Origin: an uncultured Alphaproteobacteria bacterium | GTDB lineage: Bacteria; Pseudomonadota; Alphaproteobacteria; Rs-D84 | Assembly (NCBI GenBank): GCA_905234185.1 | Contig: CAJOGC010000001.1 | Coordinates: 31,765 to 95,764 of the forward strand | Reading direction: 5' to 3' | DNA length: 64,000 nucleotides | Part shown: positions 1,465-37,842 of the stretch, piece by piece | Numbering within the stretch: the stretch's first letter is position 1 | Layout: every line of letters begins with the position of its first letter | Notes under the pieces: generated by a model | Databases searched by the model: none | Seen by the model: only the letters and a program-made list of their open reading frames with translations | Told to the model about the DNA's origin: nothing | Program-made: the position numbers and the translations under genes

Positions 1465-2136
1465 TCAATTATCAATCCAGAATAATGTTTTCGATACCGT
1501 ATCGTGACGTAATTGTTCGACCAAACGGAACGATTGGTCTATACGCGCGGCATTTTCACCCAACATAAAATGCAGTTCCCCGTGCCAATCGCCCATATCT
1601 GTATTAAGCATCGCATATACGCGTCCAACAAAATCAGATTTATCACCATCGTCATGCGACAAAAACAAAGTTAACGAATCGGCCCGCACGGCCCGCAACG
1701 CCCCGAATACATTTTCCCAATCATCGTGATTTATTTCATTTACATCGATTCCAACAGACAAAGTTTTATTGAAAAACAAATCATCCCGAACAAATTTCAA
1801 TTCTGAAACGAATCGGTCCATATCGCGCGCCCGAACAAAAACAATCGCCCCGTCCGCACCATCACGAAAAGCCCCGGTAATCCGCGATGATAAATCAGAC
1901 ATAACCGCATCATCTGGTGACTTATCAACCATAAAACGTGTAATTATTTTTACATTCGTATTTTCAATCCATGGCCAAAGTTGCGTAATCGCCCCCGGCA
2001 AAATCGATATTGCGCGTAATTTATTAGTAATCGCGGTACCCGCCGCGGCCGCCAAATCGGCACCGACACAATTCACATCACACCACAACCCCATATTATC
2101 ACGCACCTGGTCTAAAAAATTGTTTTGTTCCATCAT
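1465..2136 (-). CDS. hypothetical protein (possible TIM-barrel / DeoC-like fold)
   Basis: 223-aa ORF with no clear family motif. A weak alternating beta/alpha pattern is visible. Confidence 0.35.
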   Translation of the reverse strand: MMEQNNFLDQVRDNMGLWCDVNCVGADLAAAAGTAITNKLRAISILPGAITQLWPWIENTNVKIITRFMVDKSPDDAVMSDLSSRITGAFRDGADGAIVFVRARDMDRFVSELKFVRDDLFFNKTLSVGIDVNEINHDDWENVFGALRAVRADSLTLFLSHDDGDKSDFVGRVYAMLNTDMGDWHGELHFMLGENAARIDQSFRLVEQLRHDTVSKTLFWIDN

Positions 2137-3101
2137 TGTACTTTTTACTTTATCATAAATATGCTACAATACAAATGATGAATAAAATTAATAACATTTT
2201 AATCGGGTTGCTTTGGCTGTTGGCCGTGACATTGGGTTCGACATTTTGGTTCAATACAATGTTCGGTTTCAATATTTTTTCGATTCAACACTGGCAACAT
2301 CTTGCCTATGTCCAGGCAACGGGTCAAACCGTAAAACCGACATTTTATATTTCTGTTGTTATTGCAGTATTACTTGCCATGTTCGGTTTATATAAATTAT
2401 TGCAGCCGCGTTTTCGCAAGACAGTGCTACAATTATCTGACAACCCCATGCCAGAGCACCAAGGAACCTCCCCCCAGATGCCAGCCATCCAACAAACACA
2501 ACAATATGAGAATACTGCATCGGCATCCACAACGTCCCAGATGTCCACAACAGACAACAATAGCCCCGACACAGGCATAACATCGACCGCCGACCGGCCA
2601 CCACGATTAAACATCCCAACGATTACCCGCACTGAAACCGTGCCACGCGTTCCTTTGGCCGCCGCCCAAATAACACACAAAAATCCCGAAACAGAATACG
2701 CCGATATCCGCAATATATTCGAATCTGCGGGCTATGTATTCAAGGGCATGCCAAAAATCAAGAATGTGCAAATCGCGACGGTTGCTATTGGTACAGGCGA
2801 GATTCTTTGGATTGGTGCTGTTGATGTTAAAAATAGTGATATGCAACGCGCAGTCCAGACATTATCTGGCGTATTTACCGATACACTGGAAGACATAGAA
2901 ATCCATATTCGTGCATTTGTAATCGCCGCACCCGATGCTGCAAACGCGCCATCAGACATTTTACAATTTGCATCTGTGGAAGATTTGCGCAACTATATAA
3001 ACGATGTTCCAAATACGCCGCCGGATGCGGACGAAGCGGATAATTTTGACGCATATTCTGGATACATCGGAACAGTTATGGATTACATAGGAAAGATATA
3101 A
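2136..3101 (+). CDS. membrane protein with two N-terminal TM helices, a Q/T/S-rich linker and a C-terminal globular domain
   Basis: 321-aa ORF. The true start is probably MMNKINN at about 2172, because 2136 is shared with the divergent gene. It has a low-complexity region (PQMPAIQQTQQYENTASASTTSQMSTTDNNSPDTGITST). Its stop overlaps the next start (TAATG). Confidence 0.5.
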   Translation: MYFLLYHKYATIQMMNKINNILIGLLWLLAVTLGSTFWFNTMFGFNIFSIQHWQHLAYVQATGQTVKPTFYISVVIAVLLAMFGLYKLLQPRFRKTVLQLSDNPMPEHQGTSPQMPAIQQTQQYENTASASTTSQMSTTDNNSPDTGITSTADRPPRLNIPTITRTETVPRVPLAAAQITHKNPETEYADIRNIFESAGYVFKGMPKIKNVQIATVAIGTGEILWIGAVDVKNSDMQRAVQTLSGVFTDTLEDIEIHIRAFVIAAPDAANAPSDILQFASVEDLRNYINDVPNTPPDADEADNFDAYSGYIGTVMDYIGKI

Positions 3102-3607
3102 TGCACTGGTCCCAGGAAGTTGCAGAAAAAAGAATAGCAGATTTAGGCATGAAAGATTTGCCACTGGTCCAAATACACCCATTGCCCCACCCGGTACCCC
3201 AAGACTGGTACACAAAATATCACGATTTTATTCACGAATTTGTAAAAACACTTGGCGACTCTATTTCTGAACTGGCATATATGAACCTGCCCCAGGGGGA
3301 TTTTATAGACTTGGTTATGGGGCATCGCATGCCGGATAACTTATCCTTAAGACTGCGCACCCCGTTGGTTTGGGGCGGCAAACTGGAACCAGACAATATG
3401 TTTTTATGTACGACTTTTCCACATTCCTACAACATGGACCGATTTATAATTGAACAGAATGGCAACGACCTTATCTGGATGCCAAATCCCGCAAAAAAGG
3501 TTTATTGGCCTGTACACATGATGAATGGTGGTGACGGTGGAAATGCGACATCTGACCGATTAAGCCAAATGGCCGCGCAAATCGCGGCTTCGCGTGGAAT
3601 GGAATAG
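3101..3607 (+). CDS. hypothetical protein
   Basis: 168-aa ORF translationally coupled to both neighbours, with no recognisable motif. Confidence 0.45.
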   Translation: MHWSQEVAEKRIADLGMKDLPLVQIHPLPHPVPQDWYTKYHDFIHEFVKTLGDSISELAYMNLPQGDFIDLVMGHRMPDNLSLRLRTPLVWGGKLEPDNMFLCTTFPHSYNMDRFIIEQNGNDLIWMPNPAKKVYWPVHMMNGGDGGNATSDRLSQMAAQIAASRGME

Positions 3608-4046
3608 AAACATGAATACAAACGAATTTTTATCTTTGATGAAATCCCATGGTGCAACGCTATACCCCCCCACGGACATACGCGACACCACATTGGCAAA
3701 CGATGTGCTTAAATCGCGCCGATGTGCAATGATTCCGGCCGTTCTTATTGATTTATATAAATCGGCATCTGCCATTAACCTGGGGACTGGATATATTTTT
3801 GGACCAACCGAATGCGCACGTGGCACACGTTTTCCGATACCTTCGATTGTCCAAATTAATATGGACATGCTTGGGAATGACGCTTTATTCGGCAAAACAG
3901 TGTTTGGCCGAAACGATTTATTTTGGTTCGCATTCGATGCGTTCGGCGCGTTCTATATGCTTGATAACCTGAACTTGCGCGTTTTAAAAAAATATGACGA
4001 TCCATATCGGGCTATGTCCGATTGTTTAATCGCGGGTAAATTTTAA
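3594..4046 (+). CDS. hypothetical protein (weak SMI1/KNR4-SUKH-like features)
   Basis: 150-aa ORF that overlaps the upstream gene by 14 nt. The pattern …IPAVLIDLY…NLGTGYIF… is vaguely like SUKH immunity-protein cores. Confidence 0.4.
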   Translation: MEWNRNMNTNEFLSLMKSHGATLYPPTDIRDTTLANDVLKSRRCAMIPAVLIDLYKSASAINLGTGYIFGPTECARGTRFPIPSIVQINMDMLGNDALFGKTVFGRNDLFWFAFDAFGAFYMLDNLNLRVLKKYDDPYRAMSDCLIAGKF

Positions 4047-4047
4047 T

Positions 4048-4263
4048 ATGAAAAAAATATCGGTATCTTTATCGGGTCACCAAACCAGTATTTCGCTGGA
4101 ACCAGAATTCGTAGATGCGCTTAATCAAATTTCAAAACACGATAAAGTTTCTGTCGCATCGATTATACAAAATATTGACGACACTCGTTCACCTGAATCT
4201 AATCTTTCGTCTGCGGTGCGTTCATACATATTACGCCGATACATGCAAGAATCAAAATTATAA
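4048..4263 (+). CDS. ribbon-helix-helix (RHH_4-like) small DNA-binding protein
   Basis: 71 aa: MKKISVSLSGHQTSISLEPEFVDALNQISKHDKVSVASIIQ…NLSSAVRSYIL. This matches the widely conserved alphaproteobacterial RHH family. Confidence 0.5.
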   Translation: MKKISVSLSGHQTSISLEPEFVDALNQISKHDKVSVASIIQNIDDTRSPESNLSSAVRSYILRRYMQESKL

Positions 4264-6211
4264 TCATTATTCCGTCTCGGCCGATTTTACGATACACCGT
4301 GTCGTGCGCACCCCATACAGTACCGTCTAAAACCCCCGCTTGACCTATTGGCAATGATGATAATATTTCGCCATTTGATAATACAAATGCACTTATACCA
4401 GAATAATTTGCTCTTATAACCGGCAACCCTGATTCAATTGCATAGCGACGAACCATATCCAAATGCTGGTATGTTCCGGGCGTTTTGCCGAACCAAGTAT
4501 CATTTGTAATGTTTACTATCGCATTTGGGGTTAAATCTGCACGTGGAACCAGTGAATCAGAAAATATAATCTCGTAGCAAATTGCCGGGGCAAAAATAAA
4601 TTCGCCGTTTTCCGTATCGATTGTTATCAGTTCCGCCCCGCCCCCATGCGCCAAGTGCACAGGCGAAGGCATAAACCCAAAAAGACTATACTCACCAAAT
4701 GGGACCAGATGTGATTTGTTGTATACATTATAAATATTGCCATCAGATGACGCGATTGCCATAGAATTATATGATTTTCCATCTGAAAAATAATTTGTTC
4801 CTATGATAACATTTGTTTTCAATGCACTTGCCAACGGCATATCATCACCATCAATCAACGTATATGGATATGTCGTTTCCGGAAAAACTATCAAATCAGG
4901 ATTCTCTGCGTCCGCTGCCAATTGAAATAAACGAATCATGTTTTCTTCGGCACGTTTCAGCGCGTCCGCACGTGAATAAACCATCTTTTGAGATTGTGAC
5001 TGTGCGGGTTGAACAATGCGTATCATTGCATTTGTTTTGTTATCATTCGATGCGACATGAATATTATACATGCCGTAAAATCCGCCACATAGCGCAATTA
5101 TAACAAAGAACAAAAACACACCCCAGGAACGCCTTGATTTAACATTTCGTAATAATTCAACACCCTCGGCAATTAATCCAACAATGATAAATGTTAACCC
5201 CAATGCCCCCCATAATGACATTGAATTAGCAATCATCGGGAACGGCAATGCTATATTCGCAACAGGATTCCATGGGAACCCGGAAAAAATCCATTCACGC
5301 ATCCATAAAACTAATGTCCAAACCCCGGCAAACATGAACACGCGTGCCCCAGGTGTTATACGGCCACGCGCAATGGATACAAACGGAACAGAAAAGAACA
5401 TAGCCCCAAAAACACCAATTCCTATTAATGCCGGCGCAGTCCATATTGCAAATTGTTTCGTTAATTCTGGAACAACATATATAGAATCAAGGGTCCACCA
5501 CAACATTGATATCGCATACATAATACCAAACGGTGACACACGCAAAAACTCACGCCACAAGACATCGTATTTTGTCCGCCGTATCGTTAACCAATAAGCA
5601 CCTGCAATTCCAAATACGGTTGCAAACCAACAATAAAAAGGTGCAAACCCAAACGCCGCTATGCCACCAAACAATGCATATAGCGCATATTGCCAAAAAC
5701 CGTTTTCACGGATTTTCAACTTTGTTAAAAACGCAATAGTGTGTGATCCAGGACAACATTTACCATTTGTACATGATATATTTTCATCATCTGCATATGG
5801 GTTTTTATAACCTAATTTTTTCATAATAGAAATCTCTTTGGACTCCATAATTTTTGCTTCGTCATCCAAAATATGGTCATATCCACGCAGATGCAACATG
5901 CCATGAACAACCATATGTACCACATGTTCCTGGACAGATATATTAGCCGCATCTGCTTCACGCATCACTGTATCTAATGAAATATAAATATCGCCCAATA
6001 ACAAATCGTCCCCCAGTTCAAATGACAGAACATTAGTTGGTTTATCCATACCGCGATATTTTTTATTAAGTTTATGTATTTCCTTATCATTGGTAAGTAT
6101 TATCGACACTTCGGCATCTTTATTTTTTGGTCCCGCCGCATTTGCAACACGTGCAAAATCAATGTCGTATTTTTCCCAACGTTTATCATTATAATTTACA
6201 TAAACCTGCAT
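4199..6211 (-). CDS. lnt: YbeY (rRNA maturation endoribonuclease) fused in frame to apolipoprotein N-acyltransferase Lnt
   Basis: The N-terminal ~155 aa contain the YbeY motif HGMLHLRGYDH. There is no stop codon, and the frame continues into an Lnt-like multi-TM region followed by a nitrilase/CN-hydrolase domain (…ICYEIIF…). A TTG codon (…TKLKIRENGFW) could be an independent lnt start. Confidence 0.8.
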   Translation of the reverse strand: MQVYVNYNDKRWEKYDIDFARVANAAGPKNKDAEVSIILTNDKEIHKLNKKYRGMDKPTNVLSFELGDDLLLGDIYISLDTVMREADAANISVQEHVVHMVVHGMLHLRGYDHILDDEAKIMESKEISIMKKLGYKNPYADDENISCTNGKCCPGSHTIAFLTKLKIRENGFWQYALYALFGGIAAFGFAPFYCWFATVFGIAGAYWLTIRRTKYDVLWREFLRVSPFGIMYAISMLWWTLDSIYVVPELTKQFAIWTAPALIGIGVFGAMFFSVPFVSIARGRITPGARVFMFAGVWTLVLWMREWIFSGFPWNPVANIALPFPMIANSMSLWGALGLTFIIVGLIAEGVELLRNVKSRRSWGVFLFFVIIALCGGFYGMYNIHVASNDNKTNAMIRIVQPAQSQSQKMVYSRADALKRAEENMIRLFQLAADAENPDLIVFPETTYPYTLIDGDDMPLASALKTNVIIGTNYFSDGKSYNSMAIASSDGNIYNVYNKSHLVPFGEYSLFGFMPSPVHLAHGGGAELITIDTENGEFIFAPAICYEIIFSDSLVPRADLTPNAIVNITNDTWFGKTPGTYQHLDMVRRYAIESGLPVIRANYSGISAFVLSNGEILSSLPIGQAGVLDGTVWGAHDTVYRKIGRDGIMIIILILACIGVICMNAPQTKD

Positions 6212-6234
6212 GTTATTTTCCTCTCTATGTGCAT

Positions 6235-8061
6235 CTAGGCGCGGTATTCCGCATTTTTAATATTATGCACGACATCTTTTTTTACAACCTTTGATTTAAT
6301 CCGTGCAGACGCCTCATTAAAAGCAGTTTTCTTTGTATTTGTTGTATTTCGTTCTTTTATCATATTTGCAACACGGGTGACATCTGACTGAACGCGACTA
6401 TTACCATTTGCAACAGATAATTTATAATTAGCCAATGCCTTTTGCAAATTCCCTTTTTGTTCATATGCATATCCAGCATTATACTGGGCGGCGGCATATT
6501 GTGATTTATCACCAATACGATTAACAATTTCCTGGGCATGTTTTATTGCATCATCATATCGTTTCAATCGATTATATGTGGCCGCTAAATCATTATGCAA
6601 CAATGCATTATCAGGGTATTTGTTGACTAATTCCTCATATTTAGATGCGGCATCGTTATACTTTCTACTTTTATATAACCCCAGAGCATATTGATATTCA
6701 GAATCAAAATCGTTGTTTTTTGTAATCTTGTCTTTAGATTTGACATCATCAGACCTTAAATGAATTATTTTTTCTTTTGGACCGCTGTCAAACTTACGGC
6801 CACGTCTGATAACATCAACTTCGTCCATGGTAAGATAGTTCATAACAGGTTCTTGAATCGTCCCCATTGTTTTACGATGTTTTGTTTGTAATAACATTTC
6901 ATTAATATTGTCGGGAACAATTATTCCATTTACACGACCATTACTGCCATATGTTAACAGGCGTCCAGGTTCTTCACCAGATGTATGATTATTTTTTTGA
7001 TATTTTTTTACAGCATCTTCTATTGTATATGGCGATTCGGCAATCGCGTACAATATTGTTGTATCACGCACATTCCCGGCATAATACAATGCGCTAACCG
7101 CATATTTATTGGCCAACCCACCCCATCGTGTCGAACGACGACCACCAAATGCATTTATATATGTCTGTAAAATAACATCGTCAGAATTTCCTGCGTTTAC
7201 AGCATCACGCACAACATGCCCTGTATTCCCATCACGGTATGTTTTATCGCCTCTGTTATATCCAGCAACCGCTAAAATAGTGAACAACTTGTAATCCAGT
7301 GGTTTTTTAAATTCCGCCTTGATTTCTGGATACACCCTTTCTTTTAACCACGATTCTGCAAGCAATCGTGCTTCACTTTTAGTGACATGAAAATCACTAG
7401 ATGATACGGGTCTCTCTAAAACACGTTCTGCAAATTTAATGTGCACCTCATCGTCTATGGTAAATCCGGCACCAACTGTTGATGTACCATTACCACCATT
7501 ATCATCATAAGAATCCGCAATAAAACCCTCACTTGAAAAAATATGTGCAACCACATAAGGATGAATCGCATCTATTTGTTTTTTCCATGTTTCATCATCT
7601 GCGTTTGGATCTAATTTAAATCCTTCTACTTCACCATCATGGTGCCGTATTTCGTTCAACACTTTTTCTATACGTGCTTTGATAACAGAATCTTCAGAAT
7701 TCAGATCTTGAGAAACCTTATATCCACCAACCACACTTGCCAGCAACATCCACCACGAAACGATTGCGGTAAAGTTCGGATTTTTCTTTACGAATTTCGG
7801 GAACTTTTTTTCTTTACCGTTTTTATTTTTTCCAACTTTTACCTTTGCAAAAACTTTTTCACCGCCCCGTGTTATAAAATTGTCCAATGGAACATGCGCC
7901 GCCAACCATAGTACTATTTGCATTGCCGCCACAGTTCCCATACCCGCACCACGTGCGATTTTACCACCTGTCTTTTGTGGATTTGTATTTTTGATTTTTT
8001 TACCAACATTTCCAACAGCACGATGCGGTGCATTAACAATTTTACGAAACTTCTCTGACAT
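6235..8061 (-). CDS. membrane-anchored protein with a lysozyme-like (GH24/GH108-like) domain and C-terminal TPR repeats
   Basis: 608 aa with two N-terminal TM helices. The segment …SEGFIADSYDDNGGNGTSTVGAGFTIDDEV… resembles the E-G…D…G…T-G catalytic region of phage-type muramidases. The C-terminus has TPR-like repeats (YNAGYAYEQKGNLQKALANY; LAATYNRLKRYDDAIKHAQ). Confidence 0.55.
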   Translation of the reverse strand: MSEKFRKIVNAPHRAVGNVGKKIKNTNPQKTGGKIARGAGMGTVAAMQIVLWLAAHVPLDNFITRGGEKVFAKVKVGKNKNGKEKKFPKFVKKNPNFTAIVSWWMLLASVVGGYKVSQDLNSEDSVIKARIEKVLNEIRHHDGEVEGFKLDPNADDETWKKQIDAIHPYVVAHIFSSEGFIADSYDDNGGNGTSTVGAGFTIDDEVHIKFAERVLERPVSSSDFHVTKSEARLLAESWLKERVYPEIKAEFKKPLDYKLFTILAVAGYNRGDKTYRDGNTGHVVRDAVNAGNSDDVILQTYINAFGGRRSTRWGGLANKYAVSALYYAGNVRDTTILYAIAESPYTIEDAVKKYQKNNHTSGEEPGRLLTYGSNGRVNGIIVPDNINEMLLQTKHRKTMGTIQEPVMNYLTMDEVDVIRRGRKFDSGPKEKIIHLRSDDVKSKDKITKNNDFDSEYQYALGLYKSRKYNDAASKYEELVNKYPDNALLHNDLAATYNRLKRYDDAIKHAQEIVNRIGDKSQYAAAQYNAGYAYEQKGNLQKALANYKLSVANGNSRVQSDVTRVANMIKERNTTNTKKTAFNEASARIKSKVVKKDVVHNIKNAEYRA

Positions 8062-8073
8062 TTATATTCCTTT

Positions 8074-8436
8074 TTACTTCTTTCCAAATCCAGTTTTCTT
8101 GGCAATTTTGGAACGCGTGACCGCATAGTTCGGCGCCACAAACGGATAGTCATGTGGCAACCCCCATTTTTCACGATACTGATCCGGGGTTAAATTATAT
8201 TTACGCTTTATATACCGACGCAGCATGATGTGCCATGTGCCGTCTTCCAGGCACTGAATCCGATCCGGCCGCACAGATTTCGCAATTTCCGATTCGGTCG
8301 CCGCATGCCCCAACAGGGTTATTCGCGCCTGGGCCACCGCCGCCGCCATGGTAAGTTTCGGATTCGCCGCCATTGCCGCCGCCGCCAGGTTTGCGACCGC
8401 CAATGCAACTTCGGCATCTTTTGCATTATTTACCAA
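8074..8436 (-). CDS. mucR: Ros/MucR family zinc-finger transcriptional regulator
   Basis: 120 aa. The C-terminal portion (…PDRIQCLEDGTWHIMLRRYIKRKYNLTPDQYREKWGLPHDYPFVAPNY…) matches the Ros/MucR fold and length. Confidence 0.7.
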   Translation of the reverse strand: MVNNAKDAEVALAVANLAAAAMAANPKLTMAAAVAQARITLLGHAATESEIAKSVRPDRIQCLEDGTWHIMLRRYIKRKYNLTPDQYREKWGLPHDYPFVAPNYAVTRSKIAKKTGFGKK

Positions 8437-8505
8437 TTGATAACCTCTTATTTATTTATTACAATTATTATACCACAAATAAAACACAAGTAAAATATAA
8501 GTAAA

Positions 8506-9783
8506 ATGAATAATGACAACCGACCTTTGGCCGATTTAATGCGTCCCAACACTATCAATGAAGTGCTGGGCCAGGTCGCGTTACTGGGTGAAAATGGCTT
8601 GGTTCGCCGCATGGTTGAAAACCAGAAATTATCCAACCTGATTTTATGGGGGCCACCGGGCTGTGGCAAAACCACAATCGCGCGTGCATTGGCAAATTCG
8701 GTTGATATGGACTTTGTGCCGATGTCCGCGGTATTTTCCGGTACCGCCGACATTAAAAAGGCAGTCGAGGCCGCAAAACTTCGCAAACAAATCGGTCGTG
8801 GCACTTTGTTGTTCATCGACGAAATTCACCGATTTAATAAAACGCAACAGGATACATTATTGCCGTATTTAGAAGACGGTACTGTTGTCTTTATTGGTGC
8901 GACAACTGAAAACCCATCGTTTAATTTAAACAACGCGTTGCTGTCGCGTTGCCATGTCGGCGTTCTGGAACCATTGGGCACCGACGATTTAATGGAATTG
9001 ATGAACCGCACTGAAAAGTTTACAGGTAAAAAATTGCCACTGGACGCATCGGCACGCACACATTTGGCACAAATGGCGGATGGCGACGCGCGGTTTTTAT
9101 TAAACACCATTGAATATTTATTAAACGCAAATTTCAAAAAAGAATTGTCGCCCGACGAACTGGACAACGCGATTCAAAAACGTGCACCATTATCGGACAA
9201 ATCTGGCGATGAACACTATAATTTAATTTCCGCGGTGCATAAATCACTGCGTGCATCTGACACCGATGCGGCGCTTTATTGGGTTGCGCGGATGATGACA
9301 TCGGGCCAGGATCCAATGTATATATTCCGTCGTTTGACAAGATTCGCAATGGAAGATGTGGGGCTTGCCGATCCAAACGCGATTCAAATGGCAATTGCAA
9401 CATGGAACGCGTATGAAAGAATGGGATCGCCAGAGGGTGATATAGCACTTGCGGAATTGGTTGTATACCTGGGCACCGCACCAAAAAGCAATCGGTTGGA
9501 CAAGGCGATTCATGCCGCATATGCGGCGGCGGTTGAAACAGGATCGTTAATGCCACCAAAAAACATTTTAAATGCCCCAACCCGCATGATGAAAAATATG
9601 GGGTATGGTGCGGGCTATGTATATGAACCCGACACCGAAAGCGGTTTTTCCGGCCAGAATTGTTTCCCTGAAAAAATGGGACGCCGCACATTTTACACAC
9701 CGGTCGAACGCGGTTTCGAACGCGAAATCAAAAAGCGTCTTGAATATTGGAATTCCCTGCGTGAACAATTGGGCAAAAAATGA
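8506..9783 (+). CDS. rarA: replication-associated recombination protein A (AAA+ ATPase RarA/MgsA)
   Basis: 425 aa with Walker A (LWGPPGCGKTT) and RarA-type C-terminal domains. Confidence 0.85.
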   Translation: MNNDNRPLADLMRPNTINEVLGQVALLGENGLVRRMVENQKLSNLILWGPPGCGKTTIARALANSVDMDFVPMSAVFSGTADIKKAVEAAKLRKQIGRGTLLFIDEIHRFNKTQQDTLLPYLEDGTVVFIGATTENPSFNLNNALLSRCHVGVLEPLGTDDLMELMNRTEKFTGKKLPLDASARTHLAQMADGDARFLLNTIEYLLNANFKKELSPDELDNAIQKRAPLSDKSGDEHYNLISAVHKSLRASDTDAALYWVARMMTSGQDPMYIFRRLTRFAMEDVGLADPNAIQMAIATWNAYERMGSPEGDIALAELVVYLGTAPKSNRLDKAIHAAYAAAVETGSLMPPKNILNAPTRMMKNMGYGAGYVYEPDTESGFSGQNCFPEKMGRRTFYTPVERGFEREIKKRLEYWNSLREQLGKK

Positions 9784-9838: not shown

Positions 9839-10639
9839 TTAATTCGTTGCGTGCCAGACATTTGTTCCATCACCGATATTAAGTTTCCCGGCACCGGTCG
9901 CAACACCTATATAACAAACGGTCCCACTGTCAAACATTATATTGATTGACGGACTCGTAATCCTGTCACGATACAGATTGAAACTTAACCCGTTTCCAAC
10001 ATTTAATCGCGTCGGACCGGCCGTACATAGTGGCAAACATTCGTTTCCGTGTAAACCGTATCCGTCATCACATGCCCACGGGCAATCATTCGCATCAACA
10101 ATTGTACCGTCCACACTATCTGGGGTGCCGGGACCACTGTAATGTGAATTGGCGGGATGCGGATTCGTGCATGGTTTAACGGTGGCATACCAATCTTCCC
10201 ATGAAGTACCTCTATAACCAGATAAATAATATCCATCTCCTGCTACATACCACAGCTTATTATTGTTTTGCCAATAGTCATTACCGTCATAATAACCTTC
10301 TATTAAAAAGATACTGCCATAATTATCGGAAAAATACATTCTGCCAACACAATCATGCACGAATCTAGCTGGCTCTCTTGCGGCAGTTGCCTCGCCAACC
10401 CTTTGACCACTTAGAGGGCTAAACCCAACCAAATAATGATATCCGGAAATCACATCATAATCGGTATCAGTTGTTGGACATGGGTATCTTGTGTCGTCCC
10501 CGGGGCAATAATACGGTGTTCTATAGGGATTGCACACGACACATTGTCCGTTGTCCACATAATACCCGGCACTGCATGTTGCGGCATGGACCGAAATCGG
10601 CATAAGTAATACAAACAAAATTATTGCGATTGATCGCAA
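9839..10639 (-). CDS. secreted cysteine-rich, Gly/Tyr/Asp-rich protein of unknown function
   Basis: 266 aa. The start is TTG at 10637-10639, with a G-rich Shine-Dalgarno 5-9 nt upstream. It has a classic signal peptide (RSIAIILFVLLMPISVHA|A). There are about 14 Cys and many CxxC-spaced pairs. No homolog was recognised. Confidence 0.5.
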   Translation of the reverse strand: MRSIAIILFVLLMPISVHAATCSAGYYVDNGQCVVCNPYRTPYYCPGDDTRYPCPTTDTDYDVISGYHYLVGFSPLSGQRVGEATAAREPARFVHDCVGRMYFSDNYGSIFLIEGYYDGNDYWQNNNKLWYVAGDGYYLSGYRGTSWEDWYATVKPCTNPHPANSHYSGPGTPDSVDGTIVDANDCPWACDDGYGLHGNECLPLCTAGPTRLNVGNGLSFNLYRDRITSPSINIMFDSGTVCYIGVATGAGKLNIGDGTNVWHATN

Positions 10640-11067
10640 ATGTTCCCCCCGTTTTGTTCTCTGAAATCCGATTCCAGATACCTGTATTCCCCTTCACCCC
10701 GTAAATGGGTGGGCGCGCCAACGGACGGGCTTGTTGCCCCCCCGTCAGGGAAAAATTTAAAACCGTCAACGGAAATTGACGGTCGGGGAGTGGTAAAGAC
10801 CAAAAAGCAAGTCTGTTCCCCGACCATAAAAGTCAGGGATGATAACGATGCAAAAAGCACCGAAAACATCAGATTACGATGCTTCTGCACCGGCTTTTGA
10901 AGGCTTACCACAGCCCGAACCCAATTCCCATTGGATTCAATTCGAATTATAACATATAAAAGCAAAAAGAAAATATATTTTATGTATAAAAAATCTCAAT
11001 TATCACGACCGTGAATGTTATGACGACGGACGAAGCCCTCGGCACCGATTGCCGATATGGACAAAAA
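10640..11067. other. GC-rich, hairpin-dense non-coding region (leader of the Cys-rich gene, or a structured RNA)
   Basis: About 430 bp with no convincing ORF. It contains several consecutive perfect stem-loops (caccccgtaaatgggtg; accgtcaa-cggaaa-ttgacggt; ggtcgggga…tccccgacc). GC content is visibly higher than the flanking sequence. Confidence 0.3.
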
Positions 11068-11790
11068 TCAGAATAAAATATTTATTTTTGCGCCGACACG
11101 CGCTTCTTCGTCTTCAAACTCGTAATCAAAATGACCGATGTATTGTGTCCGGCCAAACTGGGCCACCATTTTAAGATTTAACCATTCCTGATTATAATCT
11201 GGATTCGTTGACTTACGGAAAGTAAAACCAAATCCCGCACGCCAATTTTCATCCAGTCTGAAATAAGATTCCGGTATAAAATCAATATATGACATTCCGC
11301 GCGTTTCATCAAAAATCCATGTTGATTTTATTGTGCCCGCCAACGAAACACCCGCCCATTGACGGCCAAATCGCAATCCGGCATAGTATGACGAATCGGC
11401 AAACCATGGTGTCCGCACACGTGACGACCCCGCAAATTTGAACCCGAATAACACATCCGAAATTAAACGCGCATCATTATCAATCGCCCGCGCCATACGA
11501 TACAATGCGCCGATATCGATACTGGAAAAGCCATCTTCGGGGCCAACAAAATCAACCTGATAATGAACCCGCCCAGATACAGACAGTCTGTCGTTTAATC
11601 CATATGACATTTTTTGGCCCAAACGAAACACATCGCGTCCATATGACACATCCGTTTCAGATAATATTGCATCATCACGCAACACAAATAACGGATCAGA
11701 TGTATCTGTTTCCAAATCATATTCCGCATGCGATACAATTGGCGCAAGCAAAAATAAGACTACCGAAAAAATACCAAAAAAACGTTTCAT
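11068..11790 (-). CDS. outer-membrane beta-barrel protein (porin/OmpA-like barrel), unknown function
   Basis: Signal peptide (MKRFFGIFSVVLFLLAPIVSHA), alternating amphipathic strands, C-terminal …KINILF with a terminal Phe. The start is taken at the internal Met of the ORF 11068..11823. Confidence 0.55.
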   Translation of the reverse strand: MKRFFGIFSVVLFLLAPIVSHAEYDLETDTSDPLFVLRDDAILSETDVSYGRDVFRLGQKMSYGLNDRLSVSGRVHYQVDFVGPEDGFSSIDIGALYRMARAIDNDARLISDVLFGFKFAGSSRVRTPWFADSSYYAGLRFGRQWAGVSLAGTIKSTWIFDETRGMSYIDFIPESYFRLDENWRAGFGFTFRKSTNPDYNQEWLNLKMVAQFGRTQYIGHFDYEFEDEEARVGAKINILF

Positions 11791-11851
11791 ATGAACCACC
11801 GTTTGATACGAACAACCGAACATATGTCCGGTTGTTCACATCGTTTTTATA

Positions 11852-13099
11852 CTAGAATTGGAATATAGCCTGTAATCCAACGCTTGTTTCGTTATATTTA
11901 CTGATTTTTGCATCACCGGCCCGAATCCAATCATTCATATATGTGCCAGGTTCAGATGTCTTTTCCGCACCCCACCACCAGAAACCAAGTTTCTTGTCTT
12001 CTGCACTGTCATACAACGATGTTTTCGCGTAAAGGTTAAGCGCGAACCAATCATTCGGTTGCCATCCAATTGCCCCCTTGATAGAGAACTGATTGTTCCA
12101 ATCATAGTGGCCAAAGATACCTTCGACATTCAATGTCCAATCTTCGTCCAAAACGCTGAACACGCCAAGACCACCTTCGACATAGAACGCATGTTTTGCA
12201 TCATCGTCATAGGCGATAAACACGCCCTCTTCGTGACCATCTACATTTATACCCGTAATACCATTACCATATGCAGTACCATCAAAGTCGACATACCACC
12301 CGCGCGCAAGACCATATATAGTTGAACGGGAAACTTTATAACCAGCCTTTAGGTCTAAAATAAAGTTATTAGAAATATCTTTTTGATGCTGGAAATATCC
12401 GGACAATGTTGCAATCCAATCCGCGTTATCAACAAACCGCCATTGGGCGCCCAATCCGAACATATTCAATCCGTCATCGTCCATTTTATCATCTGGCGCG
12501 GTCGACCAATCGAATTTATATTTATTCACCTCATAACGCAACATACCCAACACCGCGATACGATCTGTGATACCAAAACTAAAATCTTCTTTTATCGCGA
12601 ATTGTTTCATGTCCCACTTAGACTTATTATCACTAAGGTCGAACACATACTGAGATGTATCAACGGTTGTGAAATCAATATTATATGAACCCATATTATA
12701 CGAGAAATCCGTAATAGATCCGAATTTACCCTTTAACGGTTGAAAGAATGGATGGGCTAAATAATATTTGCGTTTAAGTTCGGTCCGAACCGTTTCGGAA
12801 CGATTCGTGCGCACCGTTTGGGACGATGTCGAATTGCCAGACGAATACTGTTTATACAATGCGTTGCGGTTAGCCGGCTGAGTATAATACATGTTTTTGC
12901 CGTCTTTGACCTCATATGTTTTAGTAGTTGTTCGTGTTTGATATTTCGTGTAATCAACATTTTCGCGTGTACGTGTCGCCGGCCCGTTTGTTAAATCAGC
13001 ACTGGACCCCGCGCGTGTTCCCCAATTTGTTTCGGCATACCCCGGCAATGCAACCGCCAGCGCAGCCACAACACCCAATAAAGACAACTGTTTTTTCAT
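11852..13099 (-). CDS. outer-membrane beta-barrel protein, unknown function
   Basis: 415 aa with signal peptide (MKKQLSLLGVVAALAVALPGYA), Y/W/G-rich strands and C-terminal …LQAIFQF. Confidence 0.55.
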   Translation of the reverse strand: MKKQLSLLGVVAALAVALPGYAETNWGTRAGSSADLTNGPATRTRENVDYTKYQTRTTTKTYEVKDGKNMYYTQPANRNALYKQYSSGNSTSSQTVRTNRSETVRTELKRKYYLAHPFFQPLKGKFGSITDFSYNMGSYNIDFTTVDTSQYVFDLSDNKSKWDMKQFAIKEDFSFGITDRIAVLGMLRYEVNKYKFDWSTAPDDKMDDDGLNMFGLGAQWRFVDNADWIATLSGYFQHQKDISNNFILDLKAGYKVSRSTIYGLARGWYVDFDGTAYGNGITGINVDGHEEGVFIAYDDDAKHAFYVEGGLGVFSVLDEDWTLNVEGIFGHYDWNNQFSIKGAIGWQPNDWFALNLYAKTSLYDSAEDKKLGFWWWGAEKTSEPGTYMNDWIRAGDAKISKYNETSVGLQAIFQF

Positions 13100-30659: not shown

Positions 30660-30686
30660 CCCGCCCGACTGGGCGGTATGTTTTTA
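30660..30686 (+). terminator. rho-independent terminator after typA
   Basis: ccgcccgactgggcgg followed by tatgttttta. Confidence 0.5.
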
Positions 30687-31880
30687 TCTAATTTTCGACC
30701 TTAAGAACGCACGATATTTTTTACGGTTATCGCGTCCCGGGATTACACACGCAGACAATTTTATAAACACATTTAATATCTTGTATATGCATGTTTCCGC
30801 CGTATGCGTATCATTATAAATTTCATAAAGCCGATTATATTCATCCAAATCAGACCTATTCATATCCATATCGTCATCATTATATTTTATTCCAAAATCG
30901 TCCATAAATTTACGCATATATTTTGTCATACCAATAATTTGTGGCACATCGGAATAATGTGCCGTTTTATTTTTTTCAACGGACGCGGACACAAAAACAC
31001 CGCGTAACCCACGGGTTTTATTTATCAATGTTTGTGTACCAGCGGAATCTTTATTTTTACGATTTCGTTTAATCTGAATCACGGTACCACCACGCGGCAT
31101 AAACAATGCCAAGTGCAGTCCTGTCCCAGCACACCCAGCCAATATATTACAATGCCCGACAACCGCCGCCTGGTCCCGCAGAGACATTGTTTCCGGATAA
31201 ATTATTTTGAACCCATTCCGTTTGAAAATGTTCTGAATTTTTTCCTCGCCCAGTGTTCTGCGTGTTCCCATTTTAGCACGCGAAATATAAAGTTTTTTAC
31301 TATACCGCCCCACCCCATTATCTATATTCTTTACAATATAATCAAAAACTTTTCCATATTCCGGCGATGTATATCTGAACATATCAAACGATTGGGTCGG
31401 AACATACACATTTCTGAAACGTGTTGTTTTATCGATTATGATTATATGTTCCCGGGGTACACCAACCATTTCCACCATATTGTACATAAATTGCGGAACA
31501 GCAACCCCTTTATAATTAGCAAACACCACATATTTATCATGCATATCATTACCAAGCATGGCGTACATCCGACAAAAATGTTCCAACAAAAAATGTCCAA
31601 AATGAGGCATTACCCCGCCAATATACACAACATCTTTGTCCACAAAATCGATATCATTTTTTGATATTTTCGGTATACGTTGGCGCGCATTACCACGTGT
31701 TTTGAAGCTTTCCCGCACAAAATGCAAATTGTTGTCAAAAACACCATAACTGCCATTTTCAACAGCAATGATGCCTTTTTTTATATGAACGATTTTATTT
31801 TCCCGAATGCCACAACGACATGTATTACGCCAAAACCAAAATTTATAGAAAAAATCCGAATAAATAGTAACCATTTTCAA
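30684..31880 (-). CDS. glycosyltransferase, GT61/DUF563-like
   Basis: 398 aa. The HFGHFLLEHFCRMYAML motif is reminiscent of the DUF563/GT61 family (Y/F-x-H-W/F-L-x-E). Very AT-rich. Confidence 0.4.
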   Translation of the reverse strand: MKMVTIYSDFFYKFWFWRNTCRCGIRENKIVHIKKGIIAVENGSYGVFDNNLHFVRESFKTRGNARQRIPKISKNDIDFVDKDVVYIGGVMPHFGHFLLEHFCRMYAMLGNDMHDKYVVFANYKGVAVPQFMYNMVEMVGVPREHIIIIDKTTRFRNVYVPTQSFDMFRYTSPEYGKVFDYIVKNIDNGVGRYSKKLYISRAKMGTRRTLGEEKIQNIFKRNGFKIIYPETMSLRDQAAVVGHCNILAGCAGTGLHLALFMPRGGTVIQIKRNRKNKDSAGTQTLINKTRGLRGVFVSASVEKNKTAHYSDVPQIIGMTKYMRKFMDDFGIKYNDDDMDMNRSDLDEYNRLYEIYNDTHTAETCIYKILNVFIKLSACVIPGRDNRKKYRAFLRSKIR

Positions 31881-32003
31881 TCACCACACCCACATCGAAC
31901 TATACACCCCACCCACCCGCGTTCGCAAGTATGAAATATCGTAAAAGTTTATTCTGTTGCAAAGCAATCATAAACCGGTTATCTTTCAATCAAAGGATTA
32001 AAC

Positions 32004-32942
32004 ATGGCACTACCACACATTTCAAAACCAAGGAAAATATTATCCCAAGTTTTAACATTCTGGATTCCGTCCAAGAAATATCGCCGTGCATTTCGCGGCA
32101 TGCTGCAATTTGGCCTTGTTAAACGGTGGCGCGTTTTGCGTAATGACCGCAAAAAACACTTCGAAAACGAGATTGCGATCGGTGCCATTATGAAGGACGA
32201 AGGGCCCTATCTAAAAGAATGGTTGGATTTTCATATCCTTGTCGGAATTACAAAATTTTATCTTTATGACAATGATTCGACCGATAATACGCGCGACATA
32301 TTGAAACCATATATCGAACGTGGCATTGTCGAATATCACTGGTTCCCGGGCAAATGTATGCAATTGCCGGCATACCTGGAAATTATAAACAATCATTCGG
32401 ATGACACGCGCTGGTTGGCATTAATCGATTTGGACGAATTTTTAGTTCCGGTTCACCACGAAACAGTGTCCGAATTTTTACATACTATGCCGTCAAATTT
32501 TGCCCAGTTAATTGTCACATGGGTAATATATGGATCATCGGGCCATAAAACAAAACCCGATGGATTGTTAATGGAAAACTACAAACATCATGCCAAGAAT
32601 ACATTTGGAATCAAGGCCATTGTAAATCCGCGTCTTTTGGTGGAATATACATGCTTGCACCAAAACCTTGTTGCGGGATGGACGATTGACAATAATGGTA
32701 AAAAACTGGGGCATACACACCAATCAACAAATCCACCGGCGTATAATAATCTGCGACTTAATCATTATTATACTAAATCATACGAAGAATATATGGCCAA
32801 ATTCAAGCGCGGCACCGCCACCGGCGAAAGTAGCGAATATCGGAATGCGGAAAAATTCAAACTGTATGATCGCAACGAAGTCTATGACGACATCATGGAT
32901 AAATATATCGAAAAACTGCACGTTATGAATTCTGGCGAATAA
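32004..32942 (+). CDS. GT-A fold glycosyltransferase, GT92/GT2-like (DxD)
   Basis: 312 aa with …KDEGPYLKEWLDFHILVGITKFYLYDNDSTDNT… and a DLDEF DxD motif. Confidence 0.45.
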   Translation: MALPHISKPRKILSQVLTFWIPSKKYRRAFRGMLQFGLVKRWRVLRNDRKKHFENEIAIGAIMKDEGPYLKEWLDFHILVGITKFYLYDNDSTDNTRDILKPYIERGIVEYHWFPGKCMQLPAYLEIINNHSDDTRWLALIDLDEFLVPVHHETVSEFLHTMPSNFAQLIVTWVIYGSSGHKTKPDGLLMENYKHHAKNTFGIKAIVNPRLLVEYTCLHQNLVAGWTIDNNGKKLGHTHQSTNPPAYNNLRLNHYYTKSYEEYMAKFKRGTATGESSEYRNAEKFKLYDRNEVYDDIMDKYIEKLHVMNSGE

Positions 32943-33942
32943 AATCTAATATTCGTCGACGATATCGACGCGCATGCATTCCCGGCGCTAAATCCAGTAC
33001 GCCAACGGTTTGTAATTTTTTGAATGCATCGGCAATGTCGCGCCGAGTTGCGACATCTGTTGTCCGCATTGCATCACGATATACGCGACTTAATATCGAC
33101 CATAAAAATCGTTTATACCAAATTCGCGCATCACGCCGATTCGCCTTTTTGCGATATTCATCGGCCATCTTACCAAAACCAGCAATGGTTCCAACCGCCG
33201 TTTGTCCCGCCCCGGCATGCAATGCCGATGTTGCATTGACAGTGTAATAATACAATGGCAACCGCGTAATAACACCACTTAGTCGGCGCATCAATACCAT
33301 TGACCAAAAAAGTGTATCTTCGAACACGCGCATTTTTGTATCAAAGCGCAAGTCGTTTATTGCGCGCCGTCTGTACATGCGCATCCATATCATTCCATTT
33401 TGCACATACCATGACCGTGGTCCAAAATCACTGTTCGTTGATCGTGTAATAAGGTTTTTTACATATTTATATTTTATCTTATCTGTATCATATTTATTTT
33501 TAAATGATTCGGGCATTTTGTCCGGTGGAAAATTGACCGCATCCGGCGCATTATGTGCCACACGATCATATTCAAACGCAACCACATCAACATCTTCTCG
33601 CCGTGCAATCTTGTAAAGAATTTCCATTGTTTGCGGATGAATACAGTCGTCCGCGTCCAGAAACATGATATATTCCCCATCGGCCATATCCAACGCTGTA
33701 TTGCGCGCCGCTGAAACACCGGCATTTTTCTTGTGCACAACGATAAAACGGTCATCATGTGCCGCATATTTATCCGCAATTTTGCCGGAATCGTCAGGTG
33801 AACCATCATCAACCAAAATCGCAGACCAATCATAAAAAGTCTGATTCAACACCGAATCCAGGCATCGTGGTAAATATTTTTCGACATTATATATTGGAAT
33901 AATTATGGTTATTTTATGTGACATTGTTTTACCCTGTTGCAA
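32923..33942 (-). CDS. family 2 glycosyltransferase
   Basis: Start probably at MSHKITIIIPIYN…. Classic GT2 N-terminus (IIIPIYNVEKYL…VDDGSPD…FLDADD). Paralog of 36804..37826. Confidence 0.75.
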   Translation of the reverse strand: MQQGKTMSHKITIIIPIYNVEKYLPRCLDSVLNQTFYDWSAILVDDGSPDDSGKIADKYAAHDDRFIVVHKKNAGVSAARNTALDMADGEYIMFLDADDCIHPQTMEILYKIARREDVDVVAFEYDRVAHNAPDAVNFPPDKMPESFKNKYDTDKIKYKYVKNLITRSTNSDFGPRSWYVQNGMIWMRMYRRRAINDLRFDTKMRVFEDTLFWSMVLMRRLSGVITRLPLYYYTVNATSALHAGAGQTAVGTIAGFGKMADEYRKKANRRDARIWYKRFLWSILSRVYRDAMRTTDVATRRDIADAFKKLQTVGVLDLAPGMHARRYRRRILDFIRQNS

Positions 33943-34836
33943 AATCGTCTCAAAACGTGTAAATTATATTATGAAAAAGGAATAAAATCCATGACAAAAC
34001 GTTTGTTTCTTTTCGCGGGCTATGATGCAAATGGCATTATTGACGATGCATTAATTTACTATGTGCGCGCATTATCACGACATGGCGATGTAATATTATG
34101 CATGGACAATGACTGTAAAAAATCAGAACTTGATAAAATAAAGCCATTTGTCTTGCATCCAATTGCGATTCGTCATGGCGAATATGATTTTGGTTCTTAT
34201 AAACGGGCCTATGTTTGGGCACGCGATAAAAAAATATTAACACATTATGATAATATTTACCTTGTGAATGATTCTGTATTTGGCCCATTATATGATGTGG
34301 CAACCACAATAAGAAAAATGGAATCCACAAAAACAGACGCCACCGGTTTGGTTATCGCCACCCATAAAACACATGAATATATGGAATCTTGGTTTGTCCG
34401 GTTAAACAAGCGAATATTTATGTCCAAATGGTTTGACGCATTTATGTCATCGGTTCAACACGAAGAATATAAATATATTATAACGGTAAAATATGAACAT
34501 GGGTTGACGAACATTATCAGAAACAATGGTTGTTCTTTTGCGGCCGTTTATACTGTACGGGGACGCTATACATACAATCATCCCAAACGATTATTCCAAC
34601 GCGGCTGTCCATTTATAAAACGCGCATGTTTTACCCGACATAATGGTGCCGCCGGTGCACAAATAAGATATGTATTGTGTCATGGTGCAAAAGGTGCATG
34701 CAACGCTATAATTAATACTGCGAACCGGGTTTATGGTGTTGGGTATATGAACTGGCTATTAACCAGCAACCCCATAAAGATTATGATTCGCAACATTAAA
34801 TATGCACATAAAAAACTAAAAAGTGGCGAAATATGA
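33937..34836 (+). CDS. polysaccharide biosynthesis protein (RgpF / rhamnosyltransferase-like), tentative
   Basis: 299 aa. Likely start at MTKRLFLFAGYD…. It resembles the rhamnan-synthesis RgpF family only loosely. Confidence 0.3.
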   Translation: MQNRLKTCKLYYEKGIKSMTKRLFLFAGYDANGIIDDALIYYVRALSRHGDVILCMDNDCKKSELDKIKPFVLHPIAIRHGEYDFGSYKRAYVWARDKKILTHYDNIYLVNDSVFGPLYDVATTIRKMESTKTDATGLVIATHKTHEYMESWFVRLNKRIFMSKWFDAFMSSVQHEEYKYIITVKYEHGLTNIIRNNGCSFAAVYTVRGRYTYNHPKRLFQRGCPFIKRACFTRHNGAAGAQIRYVLCHGAKGACNAIINTANRVYGVGYMNWLLTSNPIKIMIRNIKYAHKKLKSGEI

Positions 34837-35669
34837 AAAAATCGAAAAAAATTGCGGCAATTACAATGGCACGCGACGATGAATTTTTCTTGTCACGCTG
34901 GATTGCGTACTATGGCAAACAACTGGGGACGGAAAACCTGTATATTTTATTGGATGGCACCGACCAGAAAAAACCCGCAAACGCCGGAAACGCGCACATA
35001 AAGAAACTTGCACACACGGCTATGTCGCGCGCCGCGGGTGATAAATATCGTATTGGTAAATTGACCGATTTAGCGCATGAGTTATTGAAAAATTATGATA
35101 TTGTGATTGGCTGTGATTCTGATGAATTCCTGGTTGTTGACCCAAACACAAAAAAGACATTGGCGGAATATCTATCTGAATCAAACATAAAAACAACCGT
35201 ATCTGGGCTGGGCCTGGACATTGGCCAACACATGAAACTGGAAAAACCGTTGGATTGTGATATGGCATTATTAGAACAACGCGAATATGCCCTGATTTCC
35301 ACACGATACACAAAACCCGTTGTCATAAACAAACCTGTCCGTTGGGGCAGCGGATTTCACAGTATAAAAAGTCATAATTTTCACATAGACCCAAATTTAT
35401 ATCTTTTGCATTTTGGCGCGGTTGACATGAACATGCTGATAAAAAAAGCGGAAAAACGCGGGGCCGATTGGGTAAACCATCTGCACCGTCGTGGCAATGG
35501 CACCATTAACGCCGTCACATCAAAAAAACCGCAACCCGAACAATTCATGCACATAGCGCGAATTATGCAACAAATTTTTCGCCCTATATATGCTTTTGAT
35601 AAACCTGGCATGTTGGGATTAAAACGCGTTGTAAAAATACCAGAAAGATTTAAGATTTACGATTTATAA
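34833..35669 (+). CDS. GT-A fold glycosyltransferase (GT92/GT2-like)
   Basis: 278 aa with …ITMARDDEFFLSRWIAYYGKQLGTENLYILLDGTDQ… and CDSDEF DxD-like motifs. Related to 32004..32942. Confidence 0.4.
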   Translation: MKKSKKIAAITMARDDEFFLSRWIAYYGKQLGTENLYILLDGTDQKKPANAGNAHIKKLAHTAMSRAAGDKYRIGKLTDLAHELLKNYDIVIGCDSDEFLVVDPNTKKTLAEYLSESNIKTTVSGLGLDIGQHMKLEKPLDCDMALLEQREYALISTRYTKPVVINKPVRWGSGFHSIKSHNFHIDPNLYLLHFGAVDMNMLIKKAEKRGADWVNHLHRRGNGTINAVTSKKPQPEQFMHIARIMQQIFRPIYAFDKPGMLGLKRVVKIPERFKIYDL

Positions 35670-37826: not shown

Positions 37827-37842
37827 AGGCGCCCCCGTGGTT

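Follow-up and report, generated by a model that had tools for sequence, protein, structure and literature searches.

A conserved ybeY–lnt gene fusion in uncultured Alphaproteobacteria, probably encoding a membrane-tethered bifunctional protein

YbeY, the product of a gene of the minimal bacterial set, is a zinc endoribonuclease that acts in the maturation of the 16S rRNA 3' end and in ribosome quality control, and Lnt N-acylates apolipoproteins; both belong to textbook families, and fusions between neighbouring operon genes are well known from reduced genomes. The linkage of their genes in the canonical order ybeZ-ybeY-ybeX-lnt has been described (PMC12421838; bioRxiv 10.1101/2023.03.20.533420), and the order in Escherichia coli K-12 was verified here as miaB-ybeZ-ybeY-ybeX-lnt (operon b0661-b0657). 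The subject of this report is a 64,000-nucleotide stretch of DNA from an uncultured alphaproteobacterium of the Rs-D84 lineage (assembly GCA_905234185.1, contig CAJOGC010000001.1, positions 31,765 to 95,764), hereafter the window, in which ybeY and lnt form a single gene, ybeY::lnt, on the minus strand (4199..6211 in window numbering).

How does this arrangement compare with the systems already known? As in the canonical operon, the same two genes follow one another in the same orientation, ybeY before lnt, and miaB still directly precedes the fusion in distant relatives that carry it. By contrast, ybeZ and ybeX (corC) are found neither at the fusion locus nor elsewhere in the 64-kb window, ybeY has no stop codon and continues into lnt, and in the lineage labelled 'Candidatus Enterousia' the fusion is preceded by a tetratricopeptide repeat (TPR) protein and a Ros/MucR regulator instead of miaB. 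The fused YbeY resembles its standalone counterparts (PF02130/TIGR00043; 1XM5 from E. coli, 1XAX from Haemophilus influenzae) in having a full domain, the H-x3-H-x5-H motif and the same fold; whereas those are soluble proteins of ~155 residues, its C-terminus runs into a membrane protein, which should confine it to the membrane. Similarly, the Lnt part shares with standalone Lnt (TIGR00546; 5N6H from E. coli, 5N6M from Pseudomonas aeruginosa) the eight transmembrane (TM) helices, the periplasmic nitrilase domain, the Glu/Lys/Cys triad and the equivalent of E343, but differs from it in bearing a cytoplasmic N-terminal extension of ~155 residues made up of YbeY and a linker. A looser parallel may be drawn with RNase E and RNase Y, ribonucleases that are anchored in the membrane by an amphipathic membrane-targeting helix and an N-terminal TM helix, respectively. 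They too would place an RNA-processing nuclease at the cytoplasmic face of the membrane, and by analogy they suggest that RNA processing at this site is workable; however, they belong to unrelated nuclease families and use dedicated anchors, whereas the anchor of the fusion would be a complete, unrelated enzyme.

One reading frame from YbeY to Lnt

The ybeY::lnt gene is a single open reading frame (ORF) of 670 codons plus a stop. It starts with an ATG (6209-6211) that is preceded, 8 nt upstream, by a Shine-Dalgarno (SD)-like AGAGAGG read from the sequence (6220..6226, minus strand), and its predicted product has a mass of ~76 kDa. Three Pfam families are recognised in this product, all well above their cutoffs: YbeY at residues 29-133 (E 3e-35, 121 bits against a cutoff of 25), LNT_N at 182-344 (E 1e-16, 61.6 bits against 27.1) and CN_hydrolase at 426-631 (E 1e-22, 80.9 bits against 23.2). 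The NCBIfam equivalog models agree, with scores of 129 bits for TIGR00043 (YbeY; cutoff 45) and 218 bits for TIGR00546 (lnt; cutoff 133). An open frame of 670 codons in DNA of ~40% GC, carrying two independent families above their cutoffs, is far beyond chance. A previous reading of the letters alone (hereafter the sequence-only reading) had described a complete YbeY domain, with its HGMLHLRGYDH motif, followed in the same 670-residue ORF by Lnt TM helices and a CN-hydrolase domain; ORF, Pfam and NCBIfam data bear this out, and the frame indeed reads through with no stop codon between the two parts; the strand, which that reading did not give, is the minus strand.

Is the missing stop real, or was it lost, or an indel introduced, at the junction in one assembly? 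That the sequence is derived from a metagenome-assembled genome (MAG) speaks for such an artefact, as does the fact that three database proteins (P0132, P0141 and P0216) terminate or leave the frame soon after the YbeY domain. However, the same frame recurs far too widely. A protein search over 5.8 billion clusters returned 957 matches, of which at least 120, 58-100% identical to the query, each carry YbeY, LNT_N and CN_hydrolase. They are ~627-681 residues long, save for one fragment of 544 residues, and the assemblies behind them, held in ENA, Logan, JGI and NCBI, are independent and stem from many studies and assemblers; the identical protein (P0001) occurs on four contigs from three of these sources (NCBI, ENA and Logan). 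In a scan with one genome per GTDB species, 196 genomes encoded a relative and 80 loci were retained for comparison, every one of which (80/80) has a stop-free frame of 646-721 codons across the YbeY zinc motif and Lnt. Comparison with orthologs, which the sequence-only reading had itself proposed as a way to overturn the fusion, thus uncovered a ybeY stop in none of the 80 genomic loci, and its worry about a sequencing or indel error at the junction can be laid to rest.

The junction, moreover, has evolved as coding sequence. The spacer between YbeY and TM1 varies from 22 to 61 codons through many independent indels, every one of them in frame, and the ratio of nonsynonymous to synonymous substitution rates (dN/dS; Nei-Gojobori method, NG86, summed over 21 phylogenetically independent pairs) is 0.24 for the linker, compared with 0.10 for YbeY and 0.15 for Lnt. 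The junction thus behaves as part of a translated sequence on which purifying selection acts. An artefact would require one systematic error in all of these assemblies, which is implausible as the sequences differ from each other at 20-40% of their residues; on the comparative sequence data it is effectively refuted.

A standalone ybeY paralog was also considered. Five short database proteins (P0132, P0141, P0142, P0130 and P0216) extend into the linker or Lnt TM1 before they end or shift frame, P0141 and P0216 diverging past the YbeY end in the manner of frameshifted or truncated copies; together, the five have the appearance of fragments from contig ends, of chimeras or of frameshifted copies, and not of a standalone paralog.

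Two intact modules and a cysteine-rich linker

The YbeY module occupies residues 1-140 (5792..6211, minus strand) and is supported by alignment, fold and dN/dS; it is predicted to be cytoplasmic. It aligns to residues 24-152 of the 155 residues of E. coli YbeY (1xm5) and can thus be considered complete to the native C-terminus (...LGYKNPYA). Its zinc-binding motif, H103-x3-H107-x5-H113 (HGMLHLRGYDH, residues 103-113), maps to 5873..5905, as verified on the sequence, and the conserved R53, which belongs to the ...YRGxDKPTNVLSF segment, to 6053-6055. Could this module nevertheless be a decaying remnant devoid of RNase function, a mere N-terminal extension of the essential Lnt? The reduced genomes of these bacteria and the absence of ybeZ and ybeX from the locus would fit such a fate. 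It is contradicted by the dN/dS of YbeY, the lowest of the three regions, by the invariance of the zinc triad and R53, by an identity of 42-49% to E. coli YbeY, by the TIGR00043 score of 129 bits against a cutoff of 45, and by a confident model with a native-like fold. Decay is accordingly strongly disfavoured, its probability being very slight.

The Lnt part begins with a native cytoplasmic N-terminal segment that forms a pre-TM1 helix (residues 156-171, SHTIAFLTKLKIRENG; 5699..5746, minus strand). As residues 15-17 of E. coli Lnt align to residue 176 of the query, the native, ancestral Lnt start can be placed near residue 160, and, given where YbeY ends, the true inter-protein linker therefore comprises only about residues 141-155 (DDENISCTNGKCCPG; 5747..5791), which are predicted to be disordered. 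The membrane domain with TM helices 1-7 follows at residues 172-389 (5045..5698; PF20154 LNT_N, structure model and Foldseek), and then the periplasmic nitrilase (CN-hydrolase) domain at residues 390-640 (4292..5044; PF00795, TIGR00546). TM8, for which the model gives a helix at 645-664, a short cytoplasmic tail and the stop codon (residues 641-670; 4199..4291) complete the protein. The Lnt part is only ~20-26% identical to its counterparts from E. coli and P. aeruginosa. The positions of its catalytic residues E445 (4877-4879), K499 (4715-4717) and C545 (4577-4579), together with E507 (4691-4693), were all verified on the minus strand; these residues correspond to E. coli E267, K335, C387 and E343, the first three of which form the defined Glu/Lys/Cys catalytic triad (PMC5500888). 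Across the 37 sequences of alignment A1, R53, H103, H107 and H113 of YbeY and E445, K499, E507 and C545 of Lnt are all invariant.

An AlphaFold2 model built with this alignment (pLDDT 79.9, pTM 0.70) has two folded modules with a disordered tether between them, pLDDT being ~80-86 for YbeY and 45-58 for the linker. A short pre-TM1 helix (156-164) precedes the long helices 172-188, 195-210, 218-245, 248-273, 287-309, 331-355 and 360-389. When the model was compared with the Protein Data Bank (PDB) by Foldseek, 24 Lnt chains topped the list (TMt 0.72-0.78), and E. coli YbeY 1xm5 was matched with a TMt of 0.81-0.83 and a root-mean-square deviation of 2.2-2.4 Å over 146 columns. The predicted layout of Lnt is that of eight TM helices with the nitrilase domain between TM7 and TM8, its orientation being assigned by homology. 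Both termini of Lnt are cytoplasmic (PMC5500888), which places the N-terminal YbeY in the compartment of its own RNA substrates, and the K/R-rich pre-TM1 segment (TKLKIR) would be consistent with the positive-inside rule. Judged by sequence and model, both modules appear intact, with native-like folds and active sites, and each is predicted to be catalytically active.

The linker has a character of its own. Its cysteines C147, C152 and C153 (5753-5773, minus strand) form a C-x4-CC-P-G motif at residues 147-155 (5747-5773). Cysteine makes up 7.1% of the YbeY-Lnt spacers compared with 1.3% protein-wide, a 5.5-fold enrichment; 49 of 81 species have C-x4-CC-[PVA]-G, and 62 of 81 have a cluster of three or more cysteines. 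In three loci (L003, L006 and L007) the spacer has undergone a metallothionein-like expansion to 7-11 cysteines (around locus nt 8420-8520), e.g. CNCGCGGKCNCVDCKCKNCSCCNCPG. Compared with Pfam at E<=10, the linker, including these expanded versions, gave no meaningful match. As a reasonable guess, the cluster may be a small element at the membrane surface that binds metal or responds to redox conditions. It is missing from about a dozen species and from all of the distant fusions described below, which shows that the fusion as such can do without it.

Translation, processing and origin of the fused product

What does the cell make from this gene? Most probably, ybeY::lnt is a true translational fusion, fixed in evolution, of two genes that were once neighbours in an operon, and it yields a membrane-tethered, bifunctional YbeY-Lnt protein. 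One polypeptide would be translated, of which YbeY, made first and in full, would fold in the cytoplasm; next would come a short flexible linker (Cys-rich in the Enterousia clade) and the native cytoplasmic N-terminus of Lnt, whose TM1 would serve as an N-in signal anchor, and the remainder would fold as a normal Lnt with eight TM helices, its periplasmic nitrilase domain N-acylating apolipoproteins. YbeY would thereby be held for good at the inner membrane, on its cytoplasmic side, in a 1:1 ratio with Lnt. We infer that the protein stays uncleaved and that both activities operate in the fused state; the tryptic peptides predicted to span its junction include ...NPYADDENISCTNGK and CCPGSHTIAFLTK. 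The driver was presumably genome streamlining or co-expression and not mechanistic coupling of the two activities.

Alternatively, the full-length protein could be made while functional Lnt arises mainly by internal initiation, at TTG codon 165 or at another codon, so that YbeY and Lnt would act as separate proteins. The sequence-only reading had singled out this TTG (5717-5719, minus strand, in the pre-TM1 segment) as the only codon at which lnt could start independently. It is indeed the sole in-frame ATG, GTG or TTG between the YbeY end (Y139) and TM1, it sits near the native Lnt start position, and an in-frame ATG, GTG or TTG is present in the linker or pre-TM1 region of 69 of 81 genes. 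Its use as a start is another matter. Codon 165 is not conserved, the aligned codon elsewhere often specifying I, V or M, and upstream of it there is only ...GCGTTTTTAACAAAG, with no SD sequence; nor are the candidate positions conserved in general, 12 of the 81 genes having no ATG, GTG or TTG in the linker at all, including that of the closest relative among the loci (L001, 81% identity). SD-like motifs were scored as G-rich tetramers 3-18 nt upstream, with the same set applied to true starts, internal candidates and background; a stricter set of 4-mers, which recovered only 22 of 81 true starts, had been replaced by this broader one. Such motifs precede 46 of 81 true starts (57%), but only 12 of 169 internal candidates (7%), compared with 11% of random 15-nt windows of coding sequence, so that the candidates lie at or below background. 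In addition, because ybeY has no stop codon, every YbeY molecule would be made attached to Lnt even if internal initiation did occur. Internal initiation as the main source of Lnt therefore seems quite improbable.

Similarly, the gene might encode a polyprotein, i.e. one chain that is cut in the Cys-rich linker to release a soluble YbeY and an ordinary Lnt, the fusion serving only to ensure their co-expression. Its attractions are that the linker is predicted to be unstructured (at the low pLDDT values given above), accessible and variable in length, and that the partners of YbeY, namely the 30S subunit, Era and S11, are soluble. On the other hand, neither a protease site nor a self-cleaving motif was found in the linker, no dedicated protease is syntenic with the gene, and the linker shrinks to only a few residues in L060, L062, L073, L080, P0122 and P0129, which leaves little room for processing. 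Polyprotein processing of housekeeping enzymes is, besides, rare in bacteria. We consider such cleavage unlikely and continue to favour the intact, membrane-tethered fusion.

Where might the fusion have come from? An exhaustive HMMER search of 1.84 billion representatives at 50% identity yielded 39,052 Lnt or YbeY relatives, among the best 150 of which there are about ten YbeY-Lnt fusions. Those that are clearly more distant (P0122, P0126 and P0129, with 40-47% identity, as well as P0138 and P0146, with 34-35%) come from other MAGs named 'Rickettsiales' or 'Alphaproteobacteria bacterium' and have short linkers without cysteines. The next-best matches are ordinary Lnts of 470-550 residues, and the architecture therefore appears to be confined to a few related lineages of uncultured Alphaproteobacteria. 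In two of the distant fused lineages (L083 and L084; fusions P0126 and P0138) the first 4-10 nt of the fusion overlap the end of miaB, whose product is 39-40% identical to E. coli MiaB. In tblastn searches, E. coli YbeZ and YbeX had no matches in the 64-kb window and none in 85 related loci, and no PhoH or CBS/CorC_HlyC Pfam domain was found in 40 ORFs of the window; the absence of corC noted by the sequence-only reading thus holds for the whole window. The distant miaB-adjacent fusions look like the canonical cluster minus ybeZ and ybeX, which suggests that the cluster collapsed by their loss. The simplest and likely history is that ybeZ and ybeX were first lost or relocated from the locus in genome-reduced Alphaproteobacteria, that ybeY and lnt then came to be adjacent, and that the ybeY stop was finally lost; in the Enterousia lineage the locus would later have been rearranged away from miaB. 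If so, the gene would clearly illustrate how genome reduction can turn an operon into a fusion. In an unbootstrapped neighbour-joining (NJ) tree of Lnt domains, nearly all fused proteins fall into one clade, with the unfused P0140 nested in it.

Several points weigh against the proposed fusion protein and its history. No adjacent but unfused ybeY-lnt intermediate was found among the nearest unfused Lnt relatives (P0136, P0140 and P0144), and the genes upstream of lnt in the unfused loci L081/L082, L087 and L088 have no match to YbeY or to any other Pfam family. In the same unbootstrapped tree, the fused P0146 falls outside the main fused clade. Standalone copies of ybeY or lnt may also lie elsewhere in these genomes; that neither a second ybeY nor a second lnt was found in the 64-kb window or in any related locus speaks for the fusion, but this search covered the window and flanks of +/-8 kb. 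Proteolytic separation could take place within the disordered linker, and we know of no studied organism in which a membrane-tethered YbeY is functional.

A further, more speculative idea is that the fusion acts as a 'Rosetta stone', revealing that the maturation or quality control of the small ribosomal subunit by YbeY is coupled to the maturation of envelope lipoproteins by Lnt, with the clade-specific Cys cluster of the tether as a metal- or redox-sensing hinge that modulates the RNase. The chances of this are small. Were it true, the usual site of YbeY action would be the inner membrane or its vicinity, and this would account for the association of lnt with ybeZYX throughout Proteobacteria. 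Even without such coupling, the fusion may help somewhat in asking why lnt and the ribosome-metabolism genes ybeZYX are linked in Proteobacteria, and it suggests that YbeY can work tethered to the membrane without YbeZ or CorC nearby, which bears on how it finds its ribosomal substrates. To a YbeY specialist, a naturally membrane-anchored YbeY lacking both of these neighbours should be moderately surprising.

The nearest unfused Lnt genes, found in 'Rickettsiales bacterium' MAGs, adjoin compact type II CRISPR-Cas systems (L081, 5195-9080; L082, 5106-8991; L088, 2623-6763) that encode a Cas9 of 990-1083 residues and Cas1, with Cas2 present in L081 and L082.

Annotation, host lineage and neighbouring genes

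The conserved YbeY-Lnt gene fusion is apparently undescribed, as no account of it was found in the literature searched. The NCBI name of every named fused protein (P0001-P0120, P0126, P0138 and P0146) is simply 'apolipoprotein N-acyltransferase', with the consequence that YbeY would be scored as absent when the gene content of Rs-D84/Enterousia is derived from annotation. Two nearly universal enzymes, each well studied on its own, are thus encoded as one protein that has gone unrecognised both in that literature and in annotation.

The fusion loci derive from gut and rumen MAGs labelled 'Candidatus Enterousia', 'uncultured Alphaproteobacteria' or 'Rickettsiales'. Candidatus Enterousia, listed by NCBI taxonomy as Alphaproteobacteria incertae sedis, is placed by GTDB-based work in the uncultured order Rs-D84, whose members mostly have genomes smaller than 1 Mb and possess neither the TCA cycle nor respiration (PMC12306168); one of our loci (L064) is a contig from a MAG of that study. 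Gene order around the fusion is stable, running from RarA, Ros/MucR and a variable TPR protein through YbeY::Lnt to a ribbon-helix-helix (RHH) protein and three conserved hypothetical proteins, each of these genes being present in about 57-79 of 80 loci, depending on the gene.

Upstream of the fusion, at a distance of 23 nt, lies the gene for a protein of 608 residues (6235-8061, minus strand), which is probably co-transcribed with it. Only C-terminal TPR repeats are recognised in this protein, the N-terminal ~450 residues having no family match. It is very divergent, with 25-60% identity among relatives, and is missing from several loci, where Ros/MucR directly precedes the fusion. On the other side, an RHH_4 gene (4048-4263, plus strand), identified by its Pfam match, converges on the fusion gene and shares its last 65 nt with it (4199-4263); convergent overlaps of 62-65 nt are seen in 29 of 76 related loci, the rest mostly having small gaps.

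Further genes without any Pfam match lie in two blocks. The first (1465-4046) encodes proteins of 223, 321, 168 and 150 residues that are syntenic in about 73-77 of the 80 loci; the second (9839-13099) encodes proteins of 266, 251 and 415 residues, the latter two syntenic in about 76 related genomes and the first without a match in related loci. The conserved members of both blocks are clade-specific. Finally, a region of lower GC (~0.40) at ~30684-38757 holds at least eight glycosyltransferase or capsule genes (GT2, GT4, GT61, GT92, RgpF and Caps_synth), with an additional GT-D gene at 58805-59683; in a genome that is reduced in other respects, this island is probably a surface-polysaccharide locus.

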